Source: an uncultured virus (IMG/VR IMGVR_UViG_3300032220_001168)
Lineage: Duplodnaviria > Heunggongvirae > Uroviricota > Caudoviricetes
Virus record (IMG/VR): IMGVR_UViG_3300032220_001168
Length of the DNA: 64,000 nucleotides
Strand: one strand, 5' to 3'
Position 1 is the stretch's first letter, and every line of letters begins with the position of its first letter. The position numbers and the translations under genes are program-made. The notes below the pieces were generated by a model that was given only the letters and a program-made list of their open reading frames with translations, made no database searches and was not told the origin of the DNA. Shown here one piece after another: positions 4,653-21,800 of this stretch.

Positions 4653-4788
4653 TGATAGATTTAATCAAAGATCTATGGCAATTACTAGGTTCATATTCAT
4701 TTAAAGCTTATGATCCTGAAGGGCAAGAAGCATTGCGCATTCCACTTAATTGGTTAGCTATTTTCTTTATTCTTTGTCTTTTCTCATT

Positions 4789-4968
4789 ATGATTATTGTT
4801 GATTTCTTTTCTGAAACATGCTGCAAAGGCACGGAAATCGTGGAAGGCTGGTATTGGTATGAAGACGATGGGGAAGGCATGGGAGGTCCGTTTGATGACG
4901 AAGAAGATGCTATGCTTGCCGCTGAAAACGGTATTGGCTGGGATTCGCCTTGGCAACTGCACAAATGA
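4789..4968 (+). CDS. small acidic protein
   Basis: EGWYWY...GGPFDDEEDA. Confidence 0.65.
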   Translation: MIIVDFFSETCCKGTEIVEGWYWYEDDGEGMGGPFDDEEDAMLAAENGIGWDSPWQLHK

Positions 4969-5537
4969 AGGTATTGGTGGCATGCGAATACTCGGGAGTG
5001 GTACGCGATGCTTTTATTAAGCAAGGACACAATGCCATTAGTTGCGACTTACTACCCAGCGAGAGACTAGGCCCTCACTACGAAGGAGATGTGTGCGACA
5101 TTATCAACAATGGATTTGATTTAATGATTGCTCACCCTCCCTGCACACATTTAGCGGTTAGTGGTGCTCGATGGTTCAAAGATAAACAAACAGAGCAGCT
5201 TGAAGCATTAGACTTTGTGCGTTTATTGCTAAATGCTCCTATTGATTATATTGCTTTGGAAAATCCCGTTAGTATTATTTCCTCTCGCATTCGCAAGCCT
5301 AGTCAAATTATACAACCTTGGCAATTTGGCCATGGTGAAACAAAAGCAACTTGTTTATGGTTAAAAAACTTGCCTAAACTCGTTCCCACTAATATTGTTG
5401 AAGGAAGAGAAGCAAAAGTGCACCGAATGACACCTGGTCCCAACAGATGGAAGGAAAGAAGCCGTACGTATCAAGGAATTGCAGATGCAATGGCAAGTCA
5501 ATGGGGAAATTTGCAGGGTCCGGCTGGAGGCGTATAG
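4965..5537 (+). CDS. DNA (cytosine-5) methyltransferase, short phage type
   Basis: VLVACEYSG (motif I variant), HPPC catalytic, ENPV. Confidence 0.85.
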   Translation: MKVLVACEYSGVVRDAFIKQGHNAISCDLLPSERLGPHYEGDVCDIINNGFDLMIAHPPCTHLAVSGARWFKDKQTEQLEALDFVRLLLNAPIDYIALENPVSIISSRIRKPSQIIQPWQFGHGETKATCLWLKNLPKLVPTNIVEGREAKVHRMTPGPNRWKERSRTYQGIADAMASQWGNLQGPAGGV

Positions 5538-5599
5538 GGTCCGGCTGGGAATGTATCAAGACCCGGCTGGAGGCGTATAGGGTCCGGCCAGGGTTGTAT
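5515..5599. repeat. ~21 bp tandem repeat x4
   Basis: AGGGTCCGGCTGGAGGCGTAT units at 5515, 5536, 5557, 5579. Confidence 0.9.
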
Positions 5600-5679
5600 T
5601 AGTACGCTTGTACTATTGGTTATTGCTATTGCGACTCATTCTCAAAATAGTACATTTGTACTATAGTGCGTTTGTACTA
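5600..5679. promoter_or_regulatory. three LexA-like boxes plus one Fur-like box
   Basis: TAGTACGCTTGTACTA 5600-5615, TAGTACATTTGTACTA 5648-5663, TAGTGCGTTTGTACTA 5664-5679; ATTGCGACTCATTCTCAAA 5628-5646. Confidence 0.65.
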
Positions 5680-5685
5680 CTGCTA

Positions 5686-5855
5686 AATATACCCTACCTA
5701 ATCGCCGTTGAATATACCCTACCTAATCGCCGTTGAATATACCCTACCTAATCGCCGTTGAATATACCCTACCCTCGGAGTGTGGAATAACCTACTCATA
5801 GCGCCTTTAAATATAGCTTACCCATAGGGGCTTTAAATATAGCTCACTCGCGAGC
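5686..5855. repeat. 25 bp tandem repeat (3 exact + ~4 degenerate copies)
   Basis: AATATACCCTACCTAATCGCCGTTG at 5686, 5711, 5736; decaying copies at 5761, 5786, 5810, 5836. Confidence 0.9.
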
Positions 5856-5860
5856 TCTTG

Positions 5861-5930
5861 CTCCTCGCTCCTCCTCGCTCCTCCTCGCTCCTCCTCGCTC
5901 CTCCTCGCTCCTCCTCGCTCCTCCTCGCTC
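5861..5930. repeat. 10 bp tandem repeat x7
   Basis: (CTCCTCGCTC)7. Confidence 0.95.
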
Positions 5931-6097
5931 CCTTCGATCCATCAGCCTGGCTGATCAAAAAGCCCGCAATCGGGCACTCATTAGCTTAGCCGTTTATTAG
6001 TGGGCAATATTGCCCGAAAGGATCAGGATGCCTGATCAGCACCCCATAAAGGCGCCTCGAGGCCTTTATATGGGGAGGCCTTCGCTCCTTTCTTCTC

Positions 6098-6532
6098 ATG
6101 GCTTCGCCTCTCCTCCCCGGTGAGAAACGCGCGCCTCGCGCTCCTCGCCTTTCGCCTTCGCCTCTCCTCCCCGGTGAGCTCTCATGGCCGGAGCGCTCCT
6201 TCTCTTCTCTTGAGGAGGCCGAAGCCTTCGCGCTTCTCCTCGAGAAGGAGCTCCTCGCTCTTGAGGAGCGCTCCTCTCCCTTCTCTCTTCGCGCCAATGC
6301 TCAAGAGCTCGAAGGCGACGCTCGATCAGCTCTCCTCGCTCTTGAGCGGGAGCCTCGCCTCGCCTCAAGCGCTCGAAGCATTGGCGCATTGGTCGATCAG
6401 CTTCGCGCGAGCGCTTCGAGGCTTCGCGCTCTTGCTGATCAGCGCGAGGAGCTTCGCGCTCGCCTCGAGGCCTCCCTCGAAGAGCTCGAGGAGCTCATGG
6501 CAGGGGTTCGCTGGCCTCTCCTCGCTCACTGA
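6098..6532 (+). CDS. coiled-coil hypothetical protein, L/S/A/E/R-rich
   Basis: 144 aa, first island ORF, no Thr or Tyr. Confidence 0.6.
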   Translation: MASPLLPGEKRAPRAPRLSPSPLLPGELSWPERSFSSLEEAEAFALLLEKELLALEERSSPFSLRANAQELEGDARSALLALEREPRLASSARSIGALVDQLRASASRLRALADQREELRARLEASLEELEELMAGVRWPLLAH

Positions 6533-6562
6533 TCCTTCTTCTTCTTCTTCGCCTTCTCTCCC

Positions 6563-6835
6563 ATGGCTTCTCTCTCTCCTTTCGCTCTCTGGCAATTCTC
6601 AAGGCGCCTCGGTTCGCTCGAAGAGCTCGAGCGCATGCATCCGGGGACCGTTGATACCTTCGCGCTCGAGGAGGCTCCTCCTCTTGCCGTCTTGCTTTAT
6701 GAAGGCGACGCTTGGCTTCTCGTTTGCTCTGACGCTGCTGGTTCCTACTTTCGCGCTCATATAGAAAACCAAACCCACGTGAGCGAAGAGCTCGAGGAGC
6801 TCGAGCTTCTTCTTTTTGAATGGCTTCTGCCTTGA
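6563..6835 (+). CDS. acidic hypothetical protein
   Basis: LLYEGDAWL...YFRAHIENQ...LEELELLLFEW. Confidence 0.7.
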   Translation: MASLSPFALWQFSRRLGSLEELERMHPGTVDTFALEEAPPLAVLLYEGDAWLLVCSDAAGSYFRAHIENQTHVSEELEELELLLFEWLLP

Positions 6836-6891
6836 GGCGCTCGCCTCCTCTCCCTTCTCCTCCTCCTTTCTCCTTCTCTTCTCTTCTTCTC

Positions 6892-8016
6892 ATGGCCTCC
6901 TCTTCTCTTCTTCTCGCTCCTCCTTCGCTTCTCGCTCCTCCTTCGGTTCGCTCGAGCGCGCCTCGCTCTCCTCGCGAGCTTTCGGCCTTTCTCTCCCGCT
7001 TCGGCCTTTCGATCCCCGGCCTGCTCACGAGCGGGAGCTCCAATGCGAAGCTCGCGAAAGGGAAAGGCCTCGCCTTCTCCTCGCTTCTCCACATGCTCCC
7101 CGCGAAAGGCCTCGCTCGAGCGCTCACTCCTTCTTCTCATGCTTGCAACGTGAGAAGCGAGCTCCCCGGCCTTCGAGAGCTTGCAATTCGCGAAGGCCTC
7201 CTCGAGCGCGCGCTTCTCTTTAATGCTTGCGCTTTCTCTTCTCCCTCTTTCGAGGAGCTCTGTCTAGCTTTCTCCGGCCATGGCGGGCTTTCTACAGTGC
7301 CTGGCCAATGCCGCGCGCGTCGCATGCTTGCAATGCTCGCTGATCGGGAGCTCTTTATTCGCTCCCTCCTATGGGGAGGAGGCCTCGCCATGAGAAAGGC
7401 GCGAAAGCTTCGCCTCCCTTTCGCGCTTCGCCTTAACGGCACGCAGGAGCTCCCGTGGCACGAGCCTTTCATGAGCGCGAGCCTTTCGAAGGAGGAGGCT
7501 CTCGGCCTTTCTCGCCTTTATGGAAGCCCCATCCCTTCGGGCACAGTCACAATCCCCGAAGCGCTTCGGAGTGTTCGCGGCCTTTCGCTATATGATTACG
7601 CGAAAGCGCCTCTCCCTCGCCTTCTCGCCATGAGGGAGGCCGGAGTTTACACCACGGCTTCTCTCGCTGCAGATAATCCCGGAGGAGCAAGGCGAGCGCT
7701 CGAAGCGGTTCGCCATGGCTTCTCTCTTGCTGTGCCGATCCTTCTCCCGAAAGGCGCGCCTCTCCCTTCGAACCTTCTCCTCGAGGCCGAAGGCGAAGCT
7801 TCCGCGCTCCTCGATTGCATAGACGGGGATCTAAACGACCTTCGCATGCTAGATCGCGCGCCTCGCGCGGGCTTCTCTGGCCTCGCCGTGATGCTTCGCC
7901 TCAAGCGCTCGAGAGGAGCTGATCCTTCCGCCGCTTCTCGCTTCGCTCTTGCTCCCTCCTCTGATTGGCAAGAGCTCGCGGGAGGAGGCCTCGCTCGCCT
8001 CGGTGGCCTCTCATGA
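6892..8016 (+). CDS. GP88-like phage protein
   Basis: NAKLAK, CL.FSGHGG, LRLNGT.E.PW, YDY.K, IDGD..DLR.LD motifs; start may be 6820 or 6892. Confidence 0.75.
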   Translation: MASSSLLLAPPSLLAPPSVRSSAPRSPRELSAFLSRFGLSIPGLLTSGSSNAKLAKGKGLAFSSLLHMLPAKGLARALTPSSHACNVRSELPGLRELAIREGLLERALLFNACAFSSPSFEELCLAFSGHGGLSTVPGQCRARRMLAMLADRELFIRSLLWGGGLAMRKARKLRLPFALRLNGTQELPWHEPFMSASLSKEEALGLSRLYGSPIPSGTVTIPEALRSVRGLSLYDYAKAPLPRLLAMREAGVYTTASLAADNPGGARRALEAVRHGFSLAVPILLPKGAPLPSNLLLEAEGEASALLDCIDGDLNDLRMLDRAPRAGFSGLAVMLRLKRSRGADPSAASRFALAPSSDWQELAGGGLARLGGLS

Positions 8017-8204
8017 GCGCCTCCCTTCGCCTTCGCCTTTCTGAGCTCGAAGCGCTTCTCCTTCTCCTCGCTCTCGAAAGCTTCTCTCCCGAAAGCTCCC
8101 GCGAAGAAGAGCTCCTCTCCTCCCTCCTCGAAGAGCTCGAAGCCTTCGCTCCTCGCCTCCCCTTCTCCTCCTCTCGAGAAGCTCGCGAGCGCCTCCTTAG
8201 TTGA
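8013..8204 (+). CDS. 63 aa protein using only 8 amino-acid types
   Basis: ATGA overlap with GP88 stop; followed by terminator; only M,S,A,L,R,E,F,P. Confidence 0.55.
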   Translation: MSASLRLRLSELEALLLLLALESFSPESSREEELLSSLLEELEAFAPRLPFSSSREARERLLS

Positions 8205-8229
8205 TCCGTCGAGGCCTTCTCGAGCCCAT

Positions 8230-8259
8230 AGGCTGATCCTTCAGGATCGGCCTTTCTTT
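8230..8259 (+). terminator. intrinsic terminator closing the island operon
   Basis: AGGCTGATCC-TTCA-GGATCGGCCT-TTCTTT. Confidence 0.8.
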
Positions 8260-8348
8260 ATGAGCTGCAGCGGCTTTCGTAGTGTTAGCGGATTATCCCG
8301 ACTTTTAGAATCAACTATCAGCGTTGCTAATGTATACTTTTGTCAAAA

Positions 8349-8364
8349 TGTATCACCCGATACA
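8349..8364. promoter_or_regulatory. NtcA-like box
   Basis: TGTA-TCACCCGA-TACA = GTA-N8-TAC with T/A flanks. Confidence 0.6.
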
Positions 8365-8575
8365 GAAACTTTGCCAATCCGGTGCTAGTCTGGCGCAGTA
8401 ACCCGGCACCATGGGCCGTGAGGCGGTGGGCATCCCCCAAAAAATACGACATCATTTTTCATCCGTTTTTTTTTGTCCGTATATTTACTACCACGTCCGT
8501 AATTGTCACTAATTGCGCGTAAAGCTAGTCGCGGCTGCGCGAACGGTCGAGCATGGACGATGGGGAGTGAGCGCA

Positions 8576-9091
8576 TTAAAACTCCAGGGATTTAACAATT
8601 GCCTCACCTACTGCTTTTGTTATAAGCTTTAGCTCTTCGTGCGTGGCATCATTTTTAATCGTATTAGCTCTCTGGCTAATAATCCATACATTACCCTTTA
8701 TATAACCTTTTACTGGGTCTATGCGATCTAAGGATGGACTATTAGGAACCGTGCCGTTCCCGTGAAAAGTCGACCATTCAAGGGGAATTCCTAGTATCGG
8801 ACAATGTGTGACAAAAAGAGAGCGCACGTATTCACTGTCAATATTAAATTCTAAATGTTTTTTCCTGGCTCTCTTTTTAGCGCTGCATGTCATATGAGTT
8901 GTCTGACGCAATACTGGATTTGCTTTGCCGTATGCACGTGATTGCTTGTCGTGACATTTTTTGCAAGCACTATGAAAGCCATCTTTTGCTCTTATTTTTT
9001 TGTAAAAAGCTGTGACCGGCAACTCTTCACCACAAACCGTGCATTGCTTAGTGAGCACGGCGTCCGTTGGAGAGGCAGCAGTATCGGGCAT
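8576..9091 (-). CDS. HNH-like endonuclease with N-terminal zinc finger
   Basis: CTVC...CKKC; CPILG...SLDRIDPVKGYIKGNV.IIS.RAN. Confidence 0.8.
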   Translation of the reverse strand: MPDTAASPTDAVLTKQCTVCGEELPVTAFYKKIRAKDGFHSACKKCHDKQSRAYGKANPVLRQTTHMTCSAKKRARKKHLEFNIDSEYVRSLFVTHCPILGIPLEWSTFHGNGTVPNSPSLDRIDPVKGYIKGNVWIISQRANTIKNDATHEELKLITKAVGEAIVKSLEF

Positions 9092-9184: not shown

Positions 9185-9460
9185 CCAGGGCTCATCGCGC
9201 AGGTAGCTCCCAAGAGCGTCGTAGCTTGAGCCCTTTCTTCCTTCTTTTTCTCTTTTCTCTTTCTAGCCGTGTGCGAGCACACCCCTAGCGGCTTTGTGCT
9301 CTCGCAAAGTATTGAAAAGGAGATGGGGGGGGAGGGAGCCTAGTGATCGTAGTCGCTGGGGCTCTTCTCGAAGGCTCCCTTGGCGGAGGTGCTAAAGGAA
9401 GAAGGAGAAGAGCCGCTTGGGAAGGATCGCCTTGGGGGCTCCCGGTCGTAGCGGCTCAAG
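9185..9460 (+). ncRNA. candidate multi-hairpin structured RNA or ssDNA element
   Basis: Stems GGGCTCA/TGAGCCC, GGGAGCC/GGCTCCC, GAGCCGCT/AGCGGCTC; G-U pairs favour + strand. Confidence 0.45.
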
Positions 9461-12479: not shown

Positions 12480-12541
12480 CGCTACACTGATTTCGTAACA
12501 CCCCCTAAGCCCCTCAACGATGCTCAAACCTGGGGGTCACT

Positions 12542-12610
12542 GGATCTGGAGTGTTGGCACACGCTAGGCTCATAGCCTAGAATTCCGGGTTCGATTCCCG
12601 GCAGTCCCCA
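12542..12610 (+). tRNA. atypical tRNA, anticodon CAT (Met/Ile2)
   Basis: Anticodon arm CTAGG-CTCATAG-CCTAG; T arm CCGGG-TTCGATT-CCCGG; ends CCA; 4 nt D loop; imperfect acceptor stem. Confidence 0.7.
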
Positions 12611-18508: not shown

Positions 18509-19175
18509 TCTTGCATCATTCAGCGATACCGTTCTGTCCACGAGGATGGACGCAAGTTGGTCCTATGACCCCGTTAGTGGACGTTATCGTGGCGAAAATG
18601 GACGTTTCCTCGGTCGAAAGACTGTAGAAGCCCTGATCGATGGTCGAGTTGGTAAGCTGTCAACGCAGCTCAAGGACTATACGAGGCGACTTTCTGATGG
18701 TTCCATCACCATTGATCAGTGGCAGGGCAGTGTACGTGAGGCCATCAAGGCGGCGCACATTCAAGCGGCGGTTTTGGGGCAGGGTGGACGCAATGCGTTG
18801 TCATCTTCGGACTATGGGCGCATCGGTCAAAAGCTTCGTCAAGAATACCGTTATTTTGAACGTTTTGTTCGTGATTTACTTGACGGGGCTGTGTCTAGCG
18901 CCCATGCTATTAATCGTATTGGCCTATACGCTGAAAGCGTTCGTAGTTCTTACTGGGAAGGAACTACGGTTCGTCAGGAGCAGCAAGGCTACTCGCTCAT
19001 GCGACGAATCCTGGATAGCCAAGCTGTTCACTGTCAGGATTGCATTGGTTACGCACAAAGAGGAGTAGTGCCAATTGGCAGCCTTCCGATGCCTGGACAA
19101 CGGTGTGAATGTCGCGCACGATGCAAATGCACTATTGAATATCTGAGGCAGCAAGCTCCGACTGTGCCCATGTGA
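18492..19175 (+). CDS. minor head morphogenesis protein (MuF-like)
   Basis: Follows portal; HCQDC...PG..CEC.A.CKC. Confidence 0.75.
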   Translation: MSNLDNLASFSDTVLSTRMDASWSYDPVSGRYRGENGRFLGRKTVEALIDGRVGKLSTQLKDYTRRLSDGSITIDQWQGSVREAIKAAHIQAAVLGQGGRNALSSSDYGRIGQKLRQEYRYFERFVRDLLDGAVSSAHAINRIGLYAESVRSSYWEGTTVRQEQQGYSLMRRILDSQAVHCQDCIGYAQRGVVPIGSLPMPGQRCECRARCKCTIEYLRQQAPTVPM

Positions 19176-19213
19176 AGAATTGCTACTATCATCGGACTAA
19201 TTCCGGTTTTCCC

Positions 19214-20434
19214 GTGGCAAAAATTCTTTACTGTGGCGATGTTGGTTGTCAGACGGGCTTTGGCCGAGTAGCTGAATATCTGATTCCTGCACTGGCAAAG
19301 GAGCACGAGGTGTACGCTCTAGCCGTCAACTATGGGGGTGACCCCAATGAAATGCAGCAGATATGCCAAATGTACCCAGCGATGGCATACGGCACTGACC
19401 CATTTGGGTCTGATCGCATTGCTGAACTGGTGCAACGTATCAAGCCGGACTTGGTGTGGGTGACCAATGACTTTTGGATTGCCATCAATCTCTGGCATCA
19501 AATCAAAGAGCTAAAGGAAACAATTCCTTTTAAATTTTTCTGCTATACACCAATTGATTCCTACGGCATCTATCCAGAAACAATGCCGCCTACTCAGGAA
19601 TGGGATGGCCTGGCCACTTACACGCGGTTTGGTGCGGAAGAGCTGAGAAAAGCTGGTTACGACAAGCATATTGATATTGTTGGCCACGGCACTGATTTTA
19701 CGAAGTTTTTCCCCATTGAGAAAATGGAAAGCCGAAAGGCTTTGGGTGTGCCTGAAGATGTTTTTATTATTTTCAATGGCAATCGAAATCAACCACGCAA
19801 GCGAATTGACTTAACGATCAAGGCTTTCATCAAGTTTGCTCTTGACAAGCCAGATGCTCGATTGTGGCTCCACATGGGCAAGAAAGATATGGGATGGGAT
19901 TTAGTGCCACTGTTTAAGCGCGTAGCTCGCGACATGGAATACGAAAGCGTTGGCAAGCTCATCCTTACCGGCTCAACATTTTCCACCCACAACTGTCTTC
20001 CTGTAGAGCAGTTGAATCAGGTGTATAACGCTGTTGACATTGGCGTGAACACTTGCATTGGAGAGGGCTGGGGGCTGGTCAATACAGAGCACGCTGCTAC
20101 TGGCGTGGCGCAATTAGTGCCCGATCACACTAGTTTTAAGGAGATTTTCCATGACATCCCCCGCATTCCCATCGAAAGCTGGGAAGTCGATAGAAACTAT
20201 GGACTAGACAGGGGACAGCCCTCTCCCGATGGATTGGCAGATCTTCTCACGCAATACTACGAGGATCGTGAGCTGCTGGCTTCTGTGGGAAAATTGTGCT
20301 ACGAAGATGTTCATCAAACAGAACTGACCTGGCCTGCTGTGACGAGCAAGATGGAGGCAATTGTCAAGAGATTGCTTGCGCAGCCCAGCGAGAAAGAGTC
20401 TAAAGGTTTTGGCATGCCTGTGAGGATTGATTGA
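19214..20434 (+). CDS. glycosyltransferase, GT-B/GT4-like
   Basis: TGFGRV, NRNQPRKR, GEGWGL..TEH. Confidence 0.88.
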   Translation: MAKILYCGDVGCQTGFGRVAEYLIPALAKEHEVYALAVNYGGDPNEMQQICQMYPAMAYGTDPFGSDRIAELVQRIKPDLVWVTNDFWIAINLWHQIKELKETIPFKFFCYTPIDSYGIYPETMPPTQEWDGLATYTRFGAEELRKAGYDKHIDIVGHGTDFTKFFPIEKMESRKALGVPEDVFIIFNGNRNQPRKRIDLTIKAFIKFALDKPDARLWLHMGKKDMGWDLVPLFKRVARDMEYESVGKLILTGSTFSTHNCLPVEQLNQVYNAVDIGVNTCIGEGWGLVNTEHAATGVAQLVPDHTSFKEIFHDIPRIPIESWEVDRNYGLDRGQPSPDGLADLLTQYYEDRELLASVGKLCYEDVHQTELTWPAVTSKMEAIVKRLLAQPSEKESKGFGMPVRID

Positions 20435-20436
20435 CC

Positions 20437-21150
20437 ATGGAAATCTCGCAAATCTTTCTTAGCGATGCTCCGAATGCACAGTTGTCACCTTTTCTGAAGA
20501 TGACGACTGGCACTGTTAAAGCTGCCTTCCCGGAAGCTAATCACACCATCTACACCAATGAAACACTTCGTCAATTTATTGTTGACAACTATAGCTCTCA
20601 TGTGGTTTGGGCTTACGATTCACTTGCTCCCTATTCGTACAAGGCGGATCTTGGGCGATTCTGCCTCTTGAATAAGCTTGGCGGATGGTATTTTGACATT
20701 GCAGTGAGAGTGATGAATCCAGTGGATATTGGAGAGCGCATTGAATTCCTGGCATTCCGTGATATTCAACGATTTTCGTTCACTAGTTGGGCCTGTGCCA
20801 CAACAGTGCTTTATTCCAAGCGTGACAACAAGGCATTGCAAACTGCCGTCGATATGATTATTGACAATTGTCGCAAAAAATACTATGGAATCACTCCATT
20901 GTGCCCCACTGGCCCAACGCTTTTGGGTGCTGCGCTGGCCGCGAATGGTGGCAATGCAAACCACGTCTTTGGCGACTACCTAGAACTCACGCCCACGCAC
21001 GAACAGAAGAATCGCGCATTCGTGCTGCCTAATGGCACAATTATGGCATGGAGCAAGCCCTCGGGCGGTGGTGACCTCACTCAACTGGGGGCCAAGGGCA
21101 CGAACAACTACAACGAACTATGGGCATCCAAAAGGGCGTACACATCATGA
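20437..21150 (+). CDS. glycosyltransferase, GT32/OCH1-like
   Basis: YKADLGRFCLL..LGGWYFD, PTGP.LLG. Confidence 0.8.
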   Translation: MEISQIFLSDAPNAQLSPFLKMTTGTVKAAFPEANHTIYTNETLRQFIVDNYSSHVVWAYDSLAPYSYKADLGRFCLLNKLGGWYFDIAVRVMNPVDIGERIEFLAFRDIQRFSFTSWACATTVLYSKRDNKALQTAVDMIIDNCRKKYYGITPLCPTGPTLLGAALAANGGNANHVFGDYLELTPTHEQKNRAFVLPNGTIMAWSKPSGGGDLTQLGAKGTNNYNELWASKRAYTS

Positions 21151-21800
21151 CTTCTCTCACTGACCTTGCTAACAGCTATAACAGCGACAAGGGAAACGTG
21201 TATAAATGCGCTCATCACTACACAAAGCACTACGAAGACATCTTCCGGGTTTATAAATCCAGGAAGAATTTGTCCCTGCTAGAGATTGGTTTGAACCGTG
21301 ATGACTGCAGCGACATTCCATCATTGCGCATGTATAAAGACTATTTTGGCGAAGAAATAAATCTCTACGGTTTCGATATTCGGCCAGAATTCAAAGCGTT
21401 TGAAAGGGAGGGATTCAATATTTACATTGGCGATCAATCTGCTCCGTCAAGCCTTGAACAATGTCTTGCCAAAGATTATGATATTGTCATTGACGATGGC
21501 AGCCACGCATCCTCCCATCAGCAGATTTCACTTCGCGAGCTATGGGCAGCCGTAAAACCTGGCGGTGTTTATATTATTGAAGACCTACATTGGCAGCCAT
21601 TTCCCGAATCTTGGCGCAGTACGGCTGAACTTGGTAAAGATTGGTTGCAGGGCGATATGAAGGGGTCGGCATTTCTTTCGCAGTTATGGATGCAACAGTT
21701 TGAAAAAGAGCTAAGAGCAGTAGAACTTTTGCCATCCGCTAGCAAGCTGCACGATCCTTCTTTGACCGAAAACGCCCTCCTCATTCTTTGGAAAAAATGA
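21147..21800 (+). CDS. class I SAM-dependent methyltransferase
   Basis: LLEIG, GFDI, GDQS, DIVIDDGSH, KPGGVYIIED. Confidence 0.85.
   Translation: MTSLTDLANSYNSDKGNVYKCAHHYTKHYEDIFRVYKSRKNLSLLEIGLNRDDCSDIPSLRMYKDYFGEEINLYGFDIRPEFKAFEREGFNIYIGDQSAPSSLEQCLAKDYDIVIDDGSHASSHQQISLRELWAAVKPGGVYIIEDLHWQPFPESWRSTAELGKDWLQGDMKGSAFLSQLWMQQFEKELRAVELLPSASKLHDPSLTENALLILWKK

Follow-up and report, generated by a model that had tools for sequence, protein, structure and literature searches.

The closest described systems concern phage DNA that enters the cell ahead of the rest of the genome. In phage T5 the only DNA cut by EcoRI or CRISPR is the first-step-transfer segment, at whose border lies a repeat-rich stop signal, as stated in the part of the report available to us (10.1101/866236). 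For Murciavirus, the accessible text describes sensitivity to a restriction-modification system of Type I (Mme2I) that depends on motifs in the first-injected region (PMC12455610). Short motifs, namely restriction sites and protospacer-adjacent motifs (PAMs), are scarce in phages, and in the accessible part of the source this is ascribed to host defence (Kupczok and Bollback 2014, PMC4246573). Here we describe an island of 2431 bp (positions 5845-8275) in a 64-kb stretch of DNA from an uncultured virus of the Caudoviricetes (IMG/VR record IMGVR_UViG_3300032220_001168), the whole of which is referred to as the window. The island is largely purged of the dinucleotides AC and GT. Judged from its sequence, it is a cassette of four open reading frames (ORFs) of early-type genes in a freshwater cyanosiphovirus resembling Synechococcus phage S-CBS4.

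Like the T5 segment, the cassette would form a siphovirus end segment with small early genes and an inner border dense in direct and inverted repeats. It differs in that no A1/A2 homologs, no staged entry and no terminal repeat are in evidence, a second copy being absent from the window and the related loci, whereas the T5 region is a 10-kb terminal repeat that has no dinucleotide purge. The repeat sequences also differ, and pairs of DnaA boxes occur in some cassette relatives only, on the outer side. With the leading region of T7-like phages such as Murciavirus the cassette shares a variable, exchangeable end, and in those phages the presence or absence of a motif decides restriction, according to the text available (PMC12455610). 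However, one specific motif is missing there, while here whole dinucleotide steps are missing and the proteins are reshaped; the Murciavirus genes point inward, and the cassette genes point outward. The effects found by Kupczok and Bollback are reportedly modest, genome-wide and motif-specific. The effect in the cassette is instead local, about five-fold, and accompanied by an excess of palindromes. A last comparison is with cryptically simple coding sequence, which is of low complexity and produced by slippage. The restricted vocabulary, dispersed short repeats, low-complexity proteins and lineage-specific words are common to both, but the cassette is strand-symmetric, reaches the synonymous sites and codon junctions of a conserved enzyme gene, and is stable across a clade. 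A literature search on cyanophage islands, PAM and dinucleotide depletion, PF17338 and S-CBS4, which left aside supplements and the S-CBS4 genome paper, found no description of such a cassette. If selection on duplex DNA is the cause, we know of no more extreme local motif avoidance in a phage.

Expected counts for AC and GT were computed from base composition. Over the whole island AC occurs 32 times against 118.9 expected and GT 28 times against 152.4, so that 60 AC+GT steps are left over. The initial annotation had counted five such steps in 6061-6480 and none in 8005-8199. Both counts were reproduced, and the expected values are 45.5 and 20.2, respectively. In 400-bp sliding windows, the observed/expected (O/E) ratio of AC+GT outside the island has a mean of 0.82 (standard deviation (sd) 0.15) and a minimum of 0.40, compared to 0.09-0.37 for windows starting at 5801-7901, and the island is therefore unique within the 64 kb. 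Strand-symmetrised odds ratios give the wider picture. For AC/GT the ratio is 0.21 in the island and 0.82 in the rest of the window; the corresponding values are 0.33 and 0.65 for TA, 0.55 and 1.23 for CA/TG, 0.79 and 1.00 for AT, 1.72 and 0.98 for AG/CT, and 1.68 and 0.92 for GA/TC. The G+C content is 0.61 in the island and 0.49 elsewhere. The suggestion that CA, TG, AT and TA are depleted as well is thus correct for CA/TG and TA, but AT is only slightly affected. It had also been suggested that purine and pyrimidine runs are joined almost only by CG and GC. This describes the two sub-windows just mentioned, where CG and GC make up 73% and 89% of the purine/pyrimidine junction steps, better than it describes the island as a whole, where they make up 62% (26% elsewhere).

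The depletion is nearly equal for complementary steps read on the coding strand (AC 0.27, GT 0.18; CA 0.60, TG 0.58). GT is scarce in every trinucleotide (GTA 0.23, GTC 0.27, GTG 0.33, GTT 0.40), and the purge extends over the spacers and the non-coding leader portion within the island, besides the genes. The hexamer pair CTGATC/GATCAG clusters in the island (5951-8238), with 12 of the 32 matches in the window falling in 3.8% of its length; it includes 'forbidden' steps, and several matches form hairpins. Given its 3-mers, TGAT/ATCA is the most over-represented 4-mer in 7/7 purged islands examined.

The purge persists when amino-acid and codon composition are controlled for in all four ORFs. 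The conserved anchor gene of the cassette, which encodes a protein of the GP88 family, has 32 AC+GT steps. The same protein written with phage-wide codon usage would have 93.2 (sd 7.3, minimum 73), and permutation of its own synonymous codons gives 55.8 (sd 3.7), with 0/1000 permutations as low as 32. The other three ORFs gave the same outcome. At the codon junctions of GP88, AC never occurs and GT occurs once. In the Leu, Ala, Ser, Arg, Gly and Pro codon families, codons containing a forbidden step number 28/459, compared with 21-57% in backbone genes, and every permitted synonym is in use (CTC 57%, CTT 36%; GCT 46%, GCG 28%, GCC 19%). The avoidance acts at the level of the dinucleotide, and not through codon or protein preference. 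A depletion that is symmetric, independent of codons and present also in spacers is the pattern expected of a rule on duplex DNA.

The protein sequence has followed the DNA rule. When the GP88 protein of the window is compared with 32 distant homologs, Val is reduced (2.4% vs 5.6%) as is Thr (2.1% vs 4.9%), while Leu (18.7% vs 12.3%) and Ser (11.8% vs 4.5%) are raised. Leu is found at 7/19 of the consensus Val positions, and the Thr and Val that remain are mostly at conserved columns. Residue 120 (7249-7251) is Cys in at least 90% of 66 aligned homologs, including the closest relative, P0001, and is Phe in the window; the change from TGC to TTC drops a TG step.

For comparison, relatives of GP88 were collected from 12 viral loci and 80 metagenome loci. 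Relatives do share the purge: the AC/GT ratio is 0.29-0.46 in 22/22 of the metagenome loci with at least 61% GP88 identity, and 0.50-1.03 in the remaining 58. Three of the purged loci have just 54% G+C and are equally purged, so that the purge is not a by-product of G+C content. In all 28 metagenome loci with enough flanking sequence, the G+C of the GP88 gene (0.61-0.72) lies above that of the far flanks (0.47-0.60), and third-position G+C (GC3) is 0.60-0.77 in GP88 as against 0.41-0.51 in the neighbouring RNR gene. A tree of 60 rows was built, most of them metagenome loci, to which the window and 8 loci from viral contigs were added; it excludes duplicates, short rows and three rows that contained internal stops. 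The purged rows form a single clade of 18 with support 100/100, the stem of which may be inflated by the shifted composition. Across this clade the AC+GT share of junction steps is steady at 0.08-0.13, over a protein divergence of up to ~35%. Another clade has an excess of CA/TG (~1.5) and a deficit of GA/TC (~0.6), and a marine clade is GC-rich with normal complexity.

Comparison of individual relatives separates the cassette from the genome that carries it. In L037 the flanks are 82-93% identical to the window in nucleotides and RNR is 93% identical in amino acids, but GP88 is only 43% identical and the island has another vocabulary. The reverse is seen in L013, where block 4789-8215 is 92% identical and RNR 66%. 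In L097 the terminase region is 99% identical, while the cassette differs between ~4910 and 8295; this other cassette (L097:70-2076) has six iterons of the same family and ~300 bp of a (CTGCTGCACT)n-like 10-bp tandem array. It follows from these alignments that the cassette is exchanged between near-identical phage backbones, at least as read from sequence. Because the cassette differs on shared backbones and is shared across differing ones, the signature belongs to the cassette lineage and not to the backbone. The composition is a heritable property of one cassette lineage. Block 4789-8215, with both junctions, is found at 92% identity in L001 and in L002/L013, which are contigs of other samples, and an assembly chimera, which the initial annotation had allowed for, is therefore excluded. 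The block includes a methyltransferase gene, which accompanies the cassette in some relatives and is 95% identical in L001/L002/L013, even though their RNR is only 66% identical. Blocks 4750-4968 and 8388-8578 are conserved (77-90% identity) across otherwise different relatives and coincide with the points, left and right, between which the cassette is exchanged; a 72-aa ORF is encoded in the left one.

A neutral origin of the composition has to be considered at this point. The end region, if prone to recombination and under little constraint, could have been made uniform by slippage, small duplications and short-patch gene conversion drawing on its own repeats, with the (CTCCTCGCTC)n tandem array at the left edge of the island as a possible seed and the scarcity of AC/GT as a by-product of a few words spreading. 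The array does share the vocabulary of the island. Repeated 12-mers number 96 in the island as against 3-9 in Markov simulations, distinct 8-mers number 1601 as against 1929-2059 (order-2 and order-1 simulations), and there are internal duplications of 18-23 nt; the excess of repeated 12-mers implies that duplication or gene conversion also contributes. The accessory ORFs are of low complexity and poorly conserved, each cassette lineage has its own vocabulary except the marine lineage, which has none, and L097 has another 10-bp array at the same spot. However, slippage yields direct repeats, whereas the vocabulary here is strand-symmetric. The conserved enzyme core uses all permitted synonyms and lacks only the codons with forbidden steps, its avoidance at codon junctions is nearly complete, and the steady junction share across the purged clade also speaks against homogenisation. 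We know of no mutational process that removes AC, GT, TA, CA and TG and yet spares CG and GC. A purely neutral origin is thus somewhat unlikely, though it deserves serious attention, and we infer that selection, rather than mutation bias, keeps the rule.

The initial annotation proposed that the island is terminal DNA, and the ends of related contigs agree with this. Downstream of GP88, 72 contigs come to a stop, 63 of them no more than 1314 bp from the gene; stops upstream of GP88 are scattered over 2-4905 bp. Seventeen of the 72 (15 recognised by pattern and 2 by eye) stop at the same homologous nucleotide, and six others within ~12 nt of it. Sixteen marine-type contigs, of diverged sequence, end exactly 9 nt past a conserved GGT (...GGTCTTTCRAAG), and the freshwater contig L069 ends at the homologous ...CCCCTTCGAAAAGT. 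The RNR-anchored contig L142 starts 4-5 nt ahead of the shared end point; the 5-nt overlap between the end of L069 and the start of L142 comes from two different phages. In the window the site has been preserved as well, ~185 bp past the island's terminator and within an element that is 83% identical in the window and L037 although their islands differ. Since independent assemblies share exact ends, the shared end would be a fixed physical end of the genome, putatively cos-like, which makes it very probable that the island is terminal DNA. A less convincing cause of the shared ends would be a fixed mosaic junction. The terminase has no relatives informative for packaging type. The S-CBS4 record is linearised at the syntenic slot, and was set aside as uninformative on physical ends, an ORF seeming to cross the junction.

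Two further observations concern the surroundings of the end. Between the island and the end site, 14 loci have two TTTTCCACA boxes in inverted orientation, which we take to be the cyanobacterial form of the DnaA box (for example L027:6732-6753, L069:5406-5427 and L007:1828-1849, with 11 further loci). The window has no such pair there, and DnaA boxes occur in it at about the number expected by chance (24 vs 22.4). An HNH/endonuclease VII gene on the minus strand (8576-9091) lies between the end site and the RNR genes and may be a mobile, homing-type nuclease; in S-CBS4 the endonuclease VII gene instead follows the RNR beta gene.

On the basis of these observations, we hypothesise that the composition is maintained by selection on the double-stranded sequence of an end cassette that is exposed by itself to a DNA-recognising activity, either of the host or encoded by the phage. 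We put the probability of this at about 0.4. In outline, an exchangeable cassette of early type would sit between a regulatory repeat array and a fixed, cos-like end of the virion DNA. The end segment, which in its end position, its variability and its repeat-rich inner border recalls first-entering DNA, would enter the cell first and would be exposed before the remaining genome is present or protected. The activity met there would need steps of the kind that is missing; it might belong to a host defence, or the cassette itself might provide it through an early function acting on DNA. Under such selection A.T pairs would not be accepted at purine/pyrimidine junctions, with AC/GT hardest hit, followed by TA and then CA/TG, and CG and GC junctions would be tolerated. 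The logic most likely parallels, by analogy, that of the first-entering DNA of T5 and T7-like phages.

A number of observations weigh against this hypothesis. The outermost 185 bp, and the promoter and leader, are unpurged. The cassette genes are transcribed toward the DNA end, and the evidence for the end site in the freshwater group consists of two contigs together with sequence homology. The short GP88-type gene of L097 has ordinary G+C and complexity, so that an unpurged cassette occurs on a near-identical backbone, and in S-CBS4 no GP88 gene is detectable and the annotated ends lack a cassette at the syntenic slot. Of 47 RNR-anchored loci (out of 80) with at least 3 kb upstream, only 6 have a purged stretch within 4 kb, while 9 have a stretch with high G+C alone and 32 have neither kind; some islands may lie past the 4-kb reach of this survey. 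The repeated 12-mers described above belong here too, as does the excess of 6-bp palindromes in the island (97 vs 36.2 expected). TCGA (35 vs 7.5) and CGCG (37 vs 18.9) are likewise in excess in the island and avoided in the backbone. Finally, for the likely hosts no defence with specificity at the level of GT/AC is known from the accessible part of a survey of picocyanobacteria (PMC11316352).

The palindromes also bear on whether the island is a general restriction-site desert, as first proposed, which they do not support. The excess includes GAGCTC (18 times) and CTCGAG (15 times), and 44/64 of the possible 6-bp palindromes are absent. It is the backbone that avoids 6-bp palindromes (684 vs 946.5 expected). 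Outside 5400-8800 the backbone also avoids the 4-bp palindromes CGCG (100 vs 223), CCGG (106 vs 223), GTAC (105 vs 236), CTAG (103 vs 236), TATA (107 vs 251) and TCGA (128 vs 236), which is possibly the footprint of host restriction systems. The broader proposal, that the segment is invisible to host targeting, is not supported in view of the palindrome-rich island, the unpurged terminal 185 bp and leader, and the unpurged cassette of L097.

A narrower version of the proposal is that the island lacks GTN PAMs of type I-D or Cas12k CRISPR systems. The scarcity itself is real: GT is low on both strands (odds ratio 0.21) and in all contexts (0.23-0.40). Type I-D with a GTN PAM occurs in cyanobacteria, according to the text available (PMC5896167, PMC10212523), and free ends of DNA are said to be preferred for the capture of spacers, though this was not observed in the study concerned, in its accessible part (PMC13575424). 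The hosts are likely to be picocyanobacteria; the closest cultured relative infects one. CRISPR is rare in these organisms: subtypes I-G, I-E and III-B occur in 15.9% of the freshwater genomes and in hardly any marine genome, and type I-D is not listed for them in the accessible portion of the survey (PMC11316352). In addition, 60 GT/AC steps remain, and the terminal 185 bp are unpurged. AAG, AGG and GAG, which are PAMs of type I-E, are abundant in the island. Cas12k systems are associated with transposons and are not known to be defensive. Avoidance of GTN PAMs is therefore highly improbable as the cause.

GP88 has 82 homologs down to E 4e-36, most of which carry PF17338 on record, and it matches phrog_1617 (E 1.4e-16); its top Atlas clusters are GP88, with scores of 0.94-0.95. 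The sequence in the window scores below the gathering cut-off of the PF17338 model (16.3 bits, E 0.0092, cut-off 24.4), presumably as a result of its shifted composition. A literature search on PF17338/GP88 returned only papers on progranulin and on unrelated phage gp88 proteins. A structure model was obtained with a predicted local distance difference test score (pLDDT) of 89.5. In VIA-align, rows 1-21 are all radical S-adenosylmethionine (SAM) enzymes, with weak scores (Z 4.9-6.3, root-mean-square deviation 4-5.6 Å), while Foldseek gave no match at E <= 0.001 and the GP88 profile had no match among PDB sequences. The radical SAM cluster-binding motif is CX3CX2C. This motif is not present in GP88; its relatives have three conserved Cys arranged as C-x6-C-x3-C, the middle one of which is Phe in the window. 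No radical-SAM Pfam family matches at E <= 0.01. The model thus suggests a fold that is weakly radical-SAM-like.

GP88 is of interest as a candidate in one specific form of the hypothesis, in which the cassette encodes or joins an early activity of very low specificity and that cuts or modifies DNA and needs GT/AC. GP88 or a partner could supply this activity, and the cassette alone would have to stay intact and transcribable meanwhile. The signature is limited to the cassette and tracks the cassette lineage, not the backbone; GP88 is enzyme-like and conserved in every such cassette; and the same logic has been proposed for T5 A1 and first-step-transfer DNA, in the part of the report available (10.1101/866236). 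On the other hand, GP88 homologs at 38-49% identity lie in islands without an AC/GT purge, and Pfam and PHROG searches find no nuclease or DNA-binding family in the four ORFs. The rest of the genome, which has normal AC/GT, would require some other protection, and the unpurged terminal 185 bp would be a target. Taken alone, this is distinctly unlikely; the weight given to it is also counted within the 0.4 for selection on the exposed duplex. There is likewise a slim chance that the cassette encodes or aids an early activity attacking or modifying DNA at GT/AC steps, with the vocabulary of each lineage co-evolving with its own enzyme, in which case the signature would follow the cassette and not the backbone. 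In that case such an activity would probably serve host shut-off or genome marking, the cassette being the sole DNA that needs to stay untouched.

The layout of the cassette is summarised in Table 1. The terminator at the end of the island, the repeats and operators on its left side, and the four co-oriented genes with their spacers were all found as first described.

Table 1. Predicted features of the cassette and its borders (positions in the window).
Feature	Position	Strand	Evidence
Small cytosine-5-type DNA methyltransferase	4950..5537	+	phrog_757, E 3e-71
Four iteron-like copies of GGTCCGGCTGG, ~21 bp spacing	5516..5592	+	direct-repeat analysis
Three putative palindromic operators, TAGTAC-N4-GTACTA	5600..5680	+	repeat analysis, promoter scan
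Three exact 25-bp direct repeats with degenerate copies, putative leader	5686..5838	+	repeat analysis
(CTCCTCGCTC)n tandem array, 10-bp period, 7 registers, left island edge	5851..5941	+	repeat analysis
ORF of 144 aa, low-complexity (L/E/R/A/S-rich)	6098..6532	+	frame kept in 13 loci
ORF of 90 aa	6563..6835	+	present in 4 loci
Unbroken 48-nt pyrimidine tract, longest in the window, directly 5' of the GP88 start codon	6844..6891	+	
GP88-family protein, 374 aa, conserved anchor gene	6892..8016	+	homology; start set by alignment
ORF of 63 aa with eight amino-acid kinds only; start overlaps the GP88 stop (ATGA)	8013..8204	+	
Intrinsic-terminator-like hairpin (8230-8253) and T-run, right island edge	8230..8263	+	terminator scan
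Conserved non-coding element with putative cos-like cut at ~8443-8447	8385..8470	.	contig-end alignment

The motif family of the iterons is also present at the syntenic place in L006 and L097. The putative operators overlap a promoter-like site, TTCTCA-17-TATAGT (5639-5667), and similar GTAC palindromes lie beside the islands of L027 and of marine relatives. The putative leader repeats are unpurged (AC+GT O/E 0.40-0.72). Among viral contigs, an exact 20-mer of the tandem array is found only in the two closest relatives, and the array of L097 occupies the same place. The frame of the 144-aa ORF is conserved with 93% to 63% identity, better than the alternative frame. The 63-aa ORF is full length only in L001/L002/L013, its C-terminal 16-19 residues being found in six further loci. 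None of the three small ORFs matches a Pfam or PHROG family, even at E 5, and an Rfam search gave no match inside the island.

This arrangement is relevant to the idea that selection acts on RNA, in that an early transcript, and perhaps an antisense transcript too, must lack the sites of endoribonucleases or mRNA interferases (for example ACA-type sites, or the labile UA and CA bonds). The island spans leader, genes and spacers and stops at the terminator, and UA and CA are both depleted. An antisense RNA could be delimited by a promoter-like site (8321-8292) and a terminator-like hairpin (5975-5962), both on the minus strand. However, the most depleted step on the sense strand is GU (0.18), a symmetric depletion would require both strands to be transcribed and selected, and the putative leader (5675-5845) is unpurged. 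We consider selection on RNA quite unlikely.

It is less likely still that the purine.pyrimidine tracts play a physical role in packaging, in ejection or in protecting the end, whether through stiffness, an A-like geometry, triplexes or a sequence-specific protein coat. The island holds 17 of the 48 homopurine or homopyrimidine runs of at least 12 nt in the window, among them a run of 48 nt; the period of the tandem array is 10 bp, and the island adjoins the likely DNA end. Yet such tracts are lacking in marine and other relatives that share the end site, L097 and S-CBS4 manage without them, a single G or C breaks the tracts every few bases, which is poor for triplex formation, and the last 185 bp are ordinary sequence. 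Outside the island there is an unbroken pyrimidine run of 34 nt (9231-9264), the second longest in the window.

Several other candidates were dropped. No single missing 4-mer accounts for the pattern. Codon adaptation through phage tRNAs was discarded since the phage has only one tRNA. Host mimicry was discarded because the signature of the island differs by 0.47 (mean) from that of contigs tentatively placed in a 70% G+C cyanobacterial bin, compared to 0.11 for the backbone. Hypermodification of thymidine was considered, but no pathway is evident: the supposed 'thymidylate synthase' turns out to be ThyX, and DUF3310 accounts for the 'nucleotide kinase'. A methyl-shield laid by the C5 methyltransferase over CG/GC junctions was also rejected: the presence of the gene does not follow the CG/GC share of junction steps, which is 0.48-0.62 with the gene and 0.49-0.59 without it.

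If selection on duplex DNA is indeed the cause, a dinucleotide rule would override codon choice, amino acids and even a near-invariant enzyme Cys, and would have persisted over a long period in a cassette that passes from one phage genome to another. This would indicate a new DNA-recognising activity in freshwater picocyanobacteria or their phages, and would provide a signature with which to find leading-end cassettes in metagenomes. If the composition is neutral, it would be a rare case in a bacterial virus of concerted low-complexity evolution entering a conserved enzyme gene. Whatever the cause, a probable fixed genome end and an exchangeable end cassette have been located in S-CBS4-like cyanosiphoviruses.

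The rest of the window is that of a siphovirus, with genes for terminase, portal, major capsid, tape measure and lambda-J-like tail tip proteins, and it also encodes RNR, ThyX, dCTP deaminase and a Sak-like annealing protein. Among cultured phages S-CBS4 is the closest relative (60% identity in the portal, 68% in the terminase). The island is absent from G001, the nearest virus record, which is a 38-kb fragment, and two metagenome-assembled genome (MAG) contigs that carry relatives both resemble phage contigs. A match to the Rfam abiF RNA motif (12501-12537 and 12542-12609; 50 bits, gathering 37) stands directly before the sole tRNA (Met, CAT), and nowhere else in the first 25 kb is there a high-identity match to a GenBank phage (here S-SZBM1). 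The portal gene region is directly followed by two glycosyltransferase genes and a methyltransferase gene (19172-21800), the putative target of these transferases being a virion protein or DNA.

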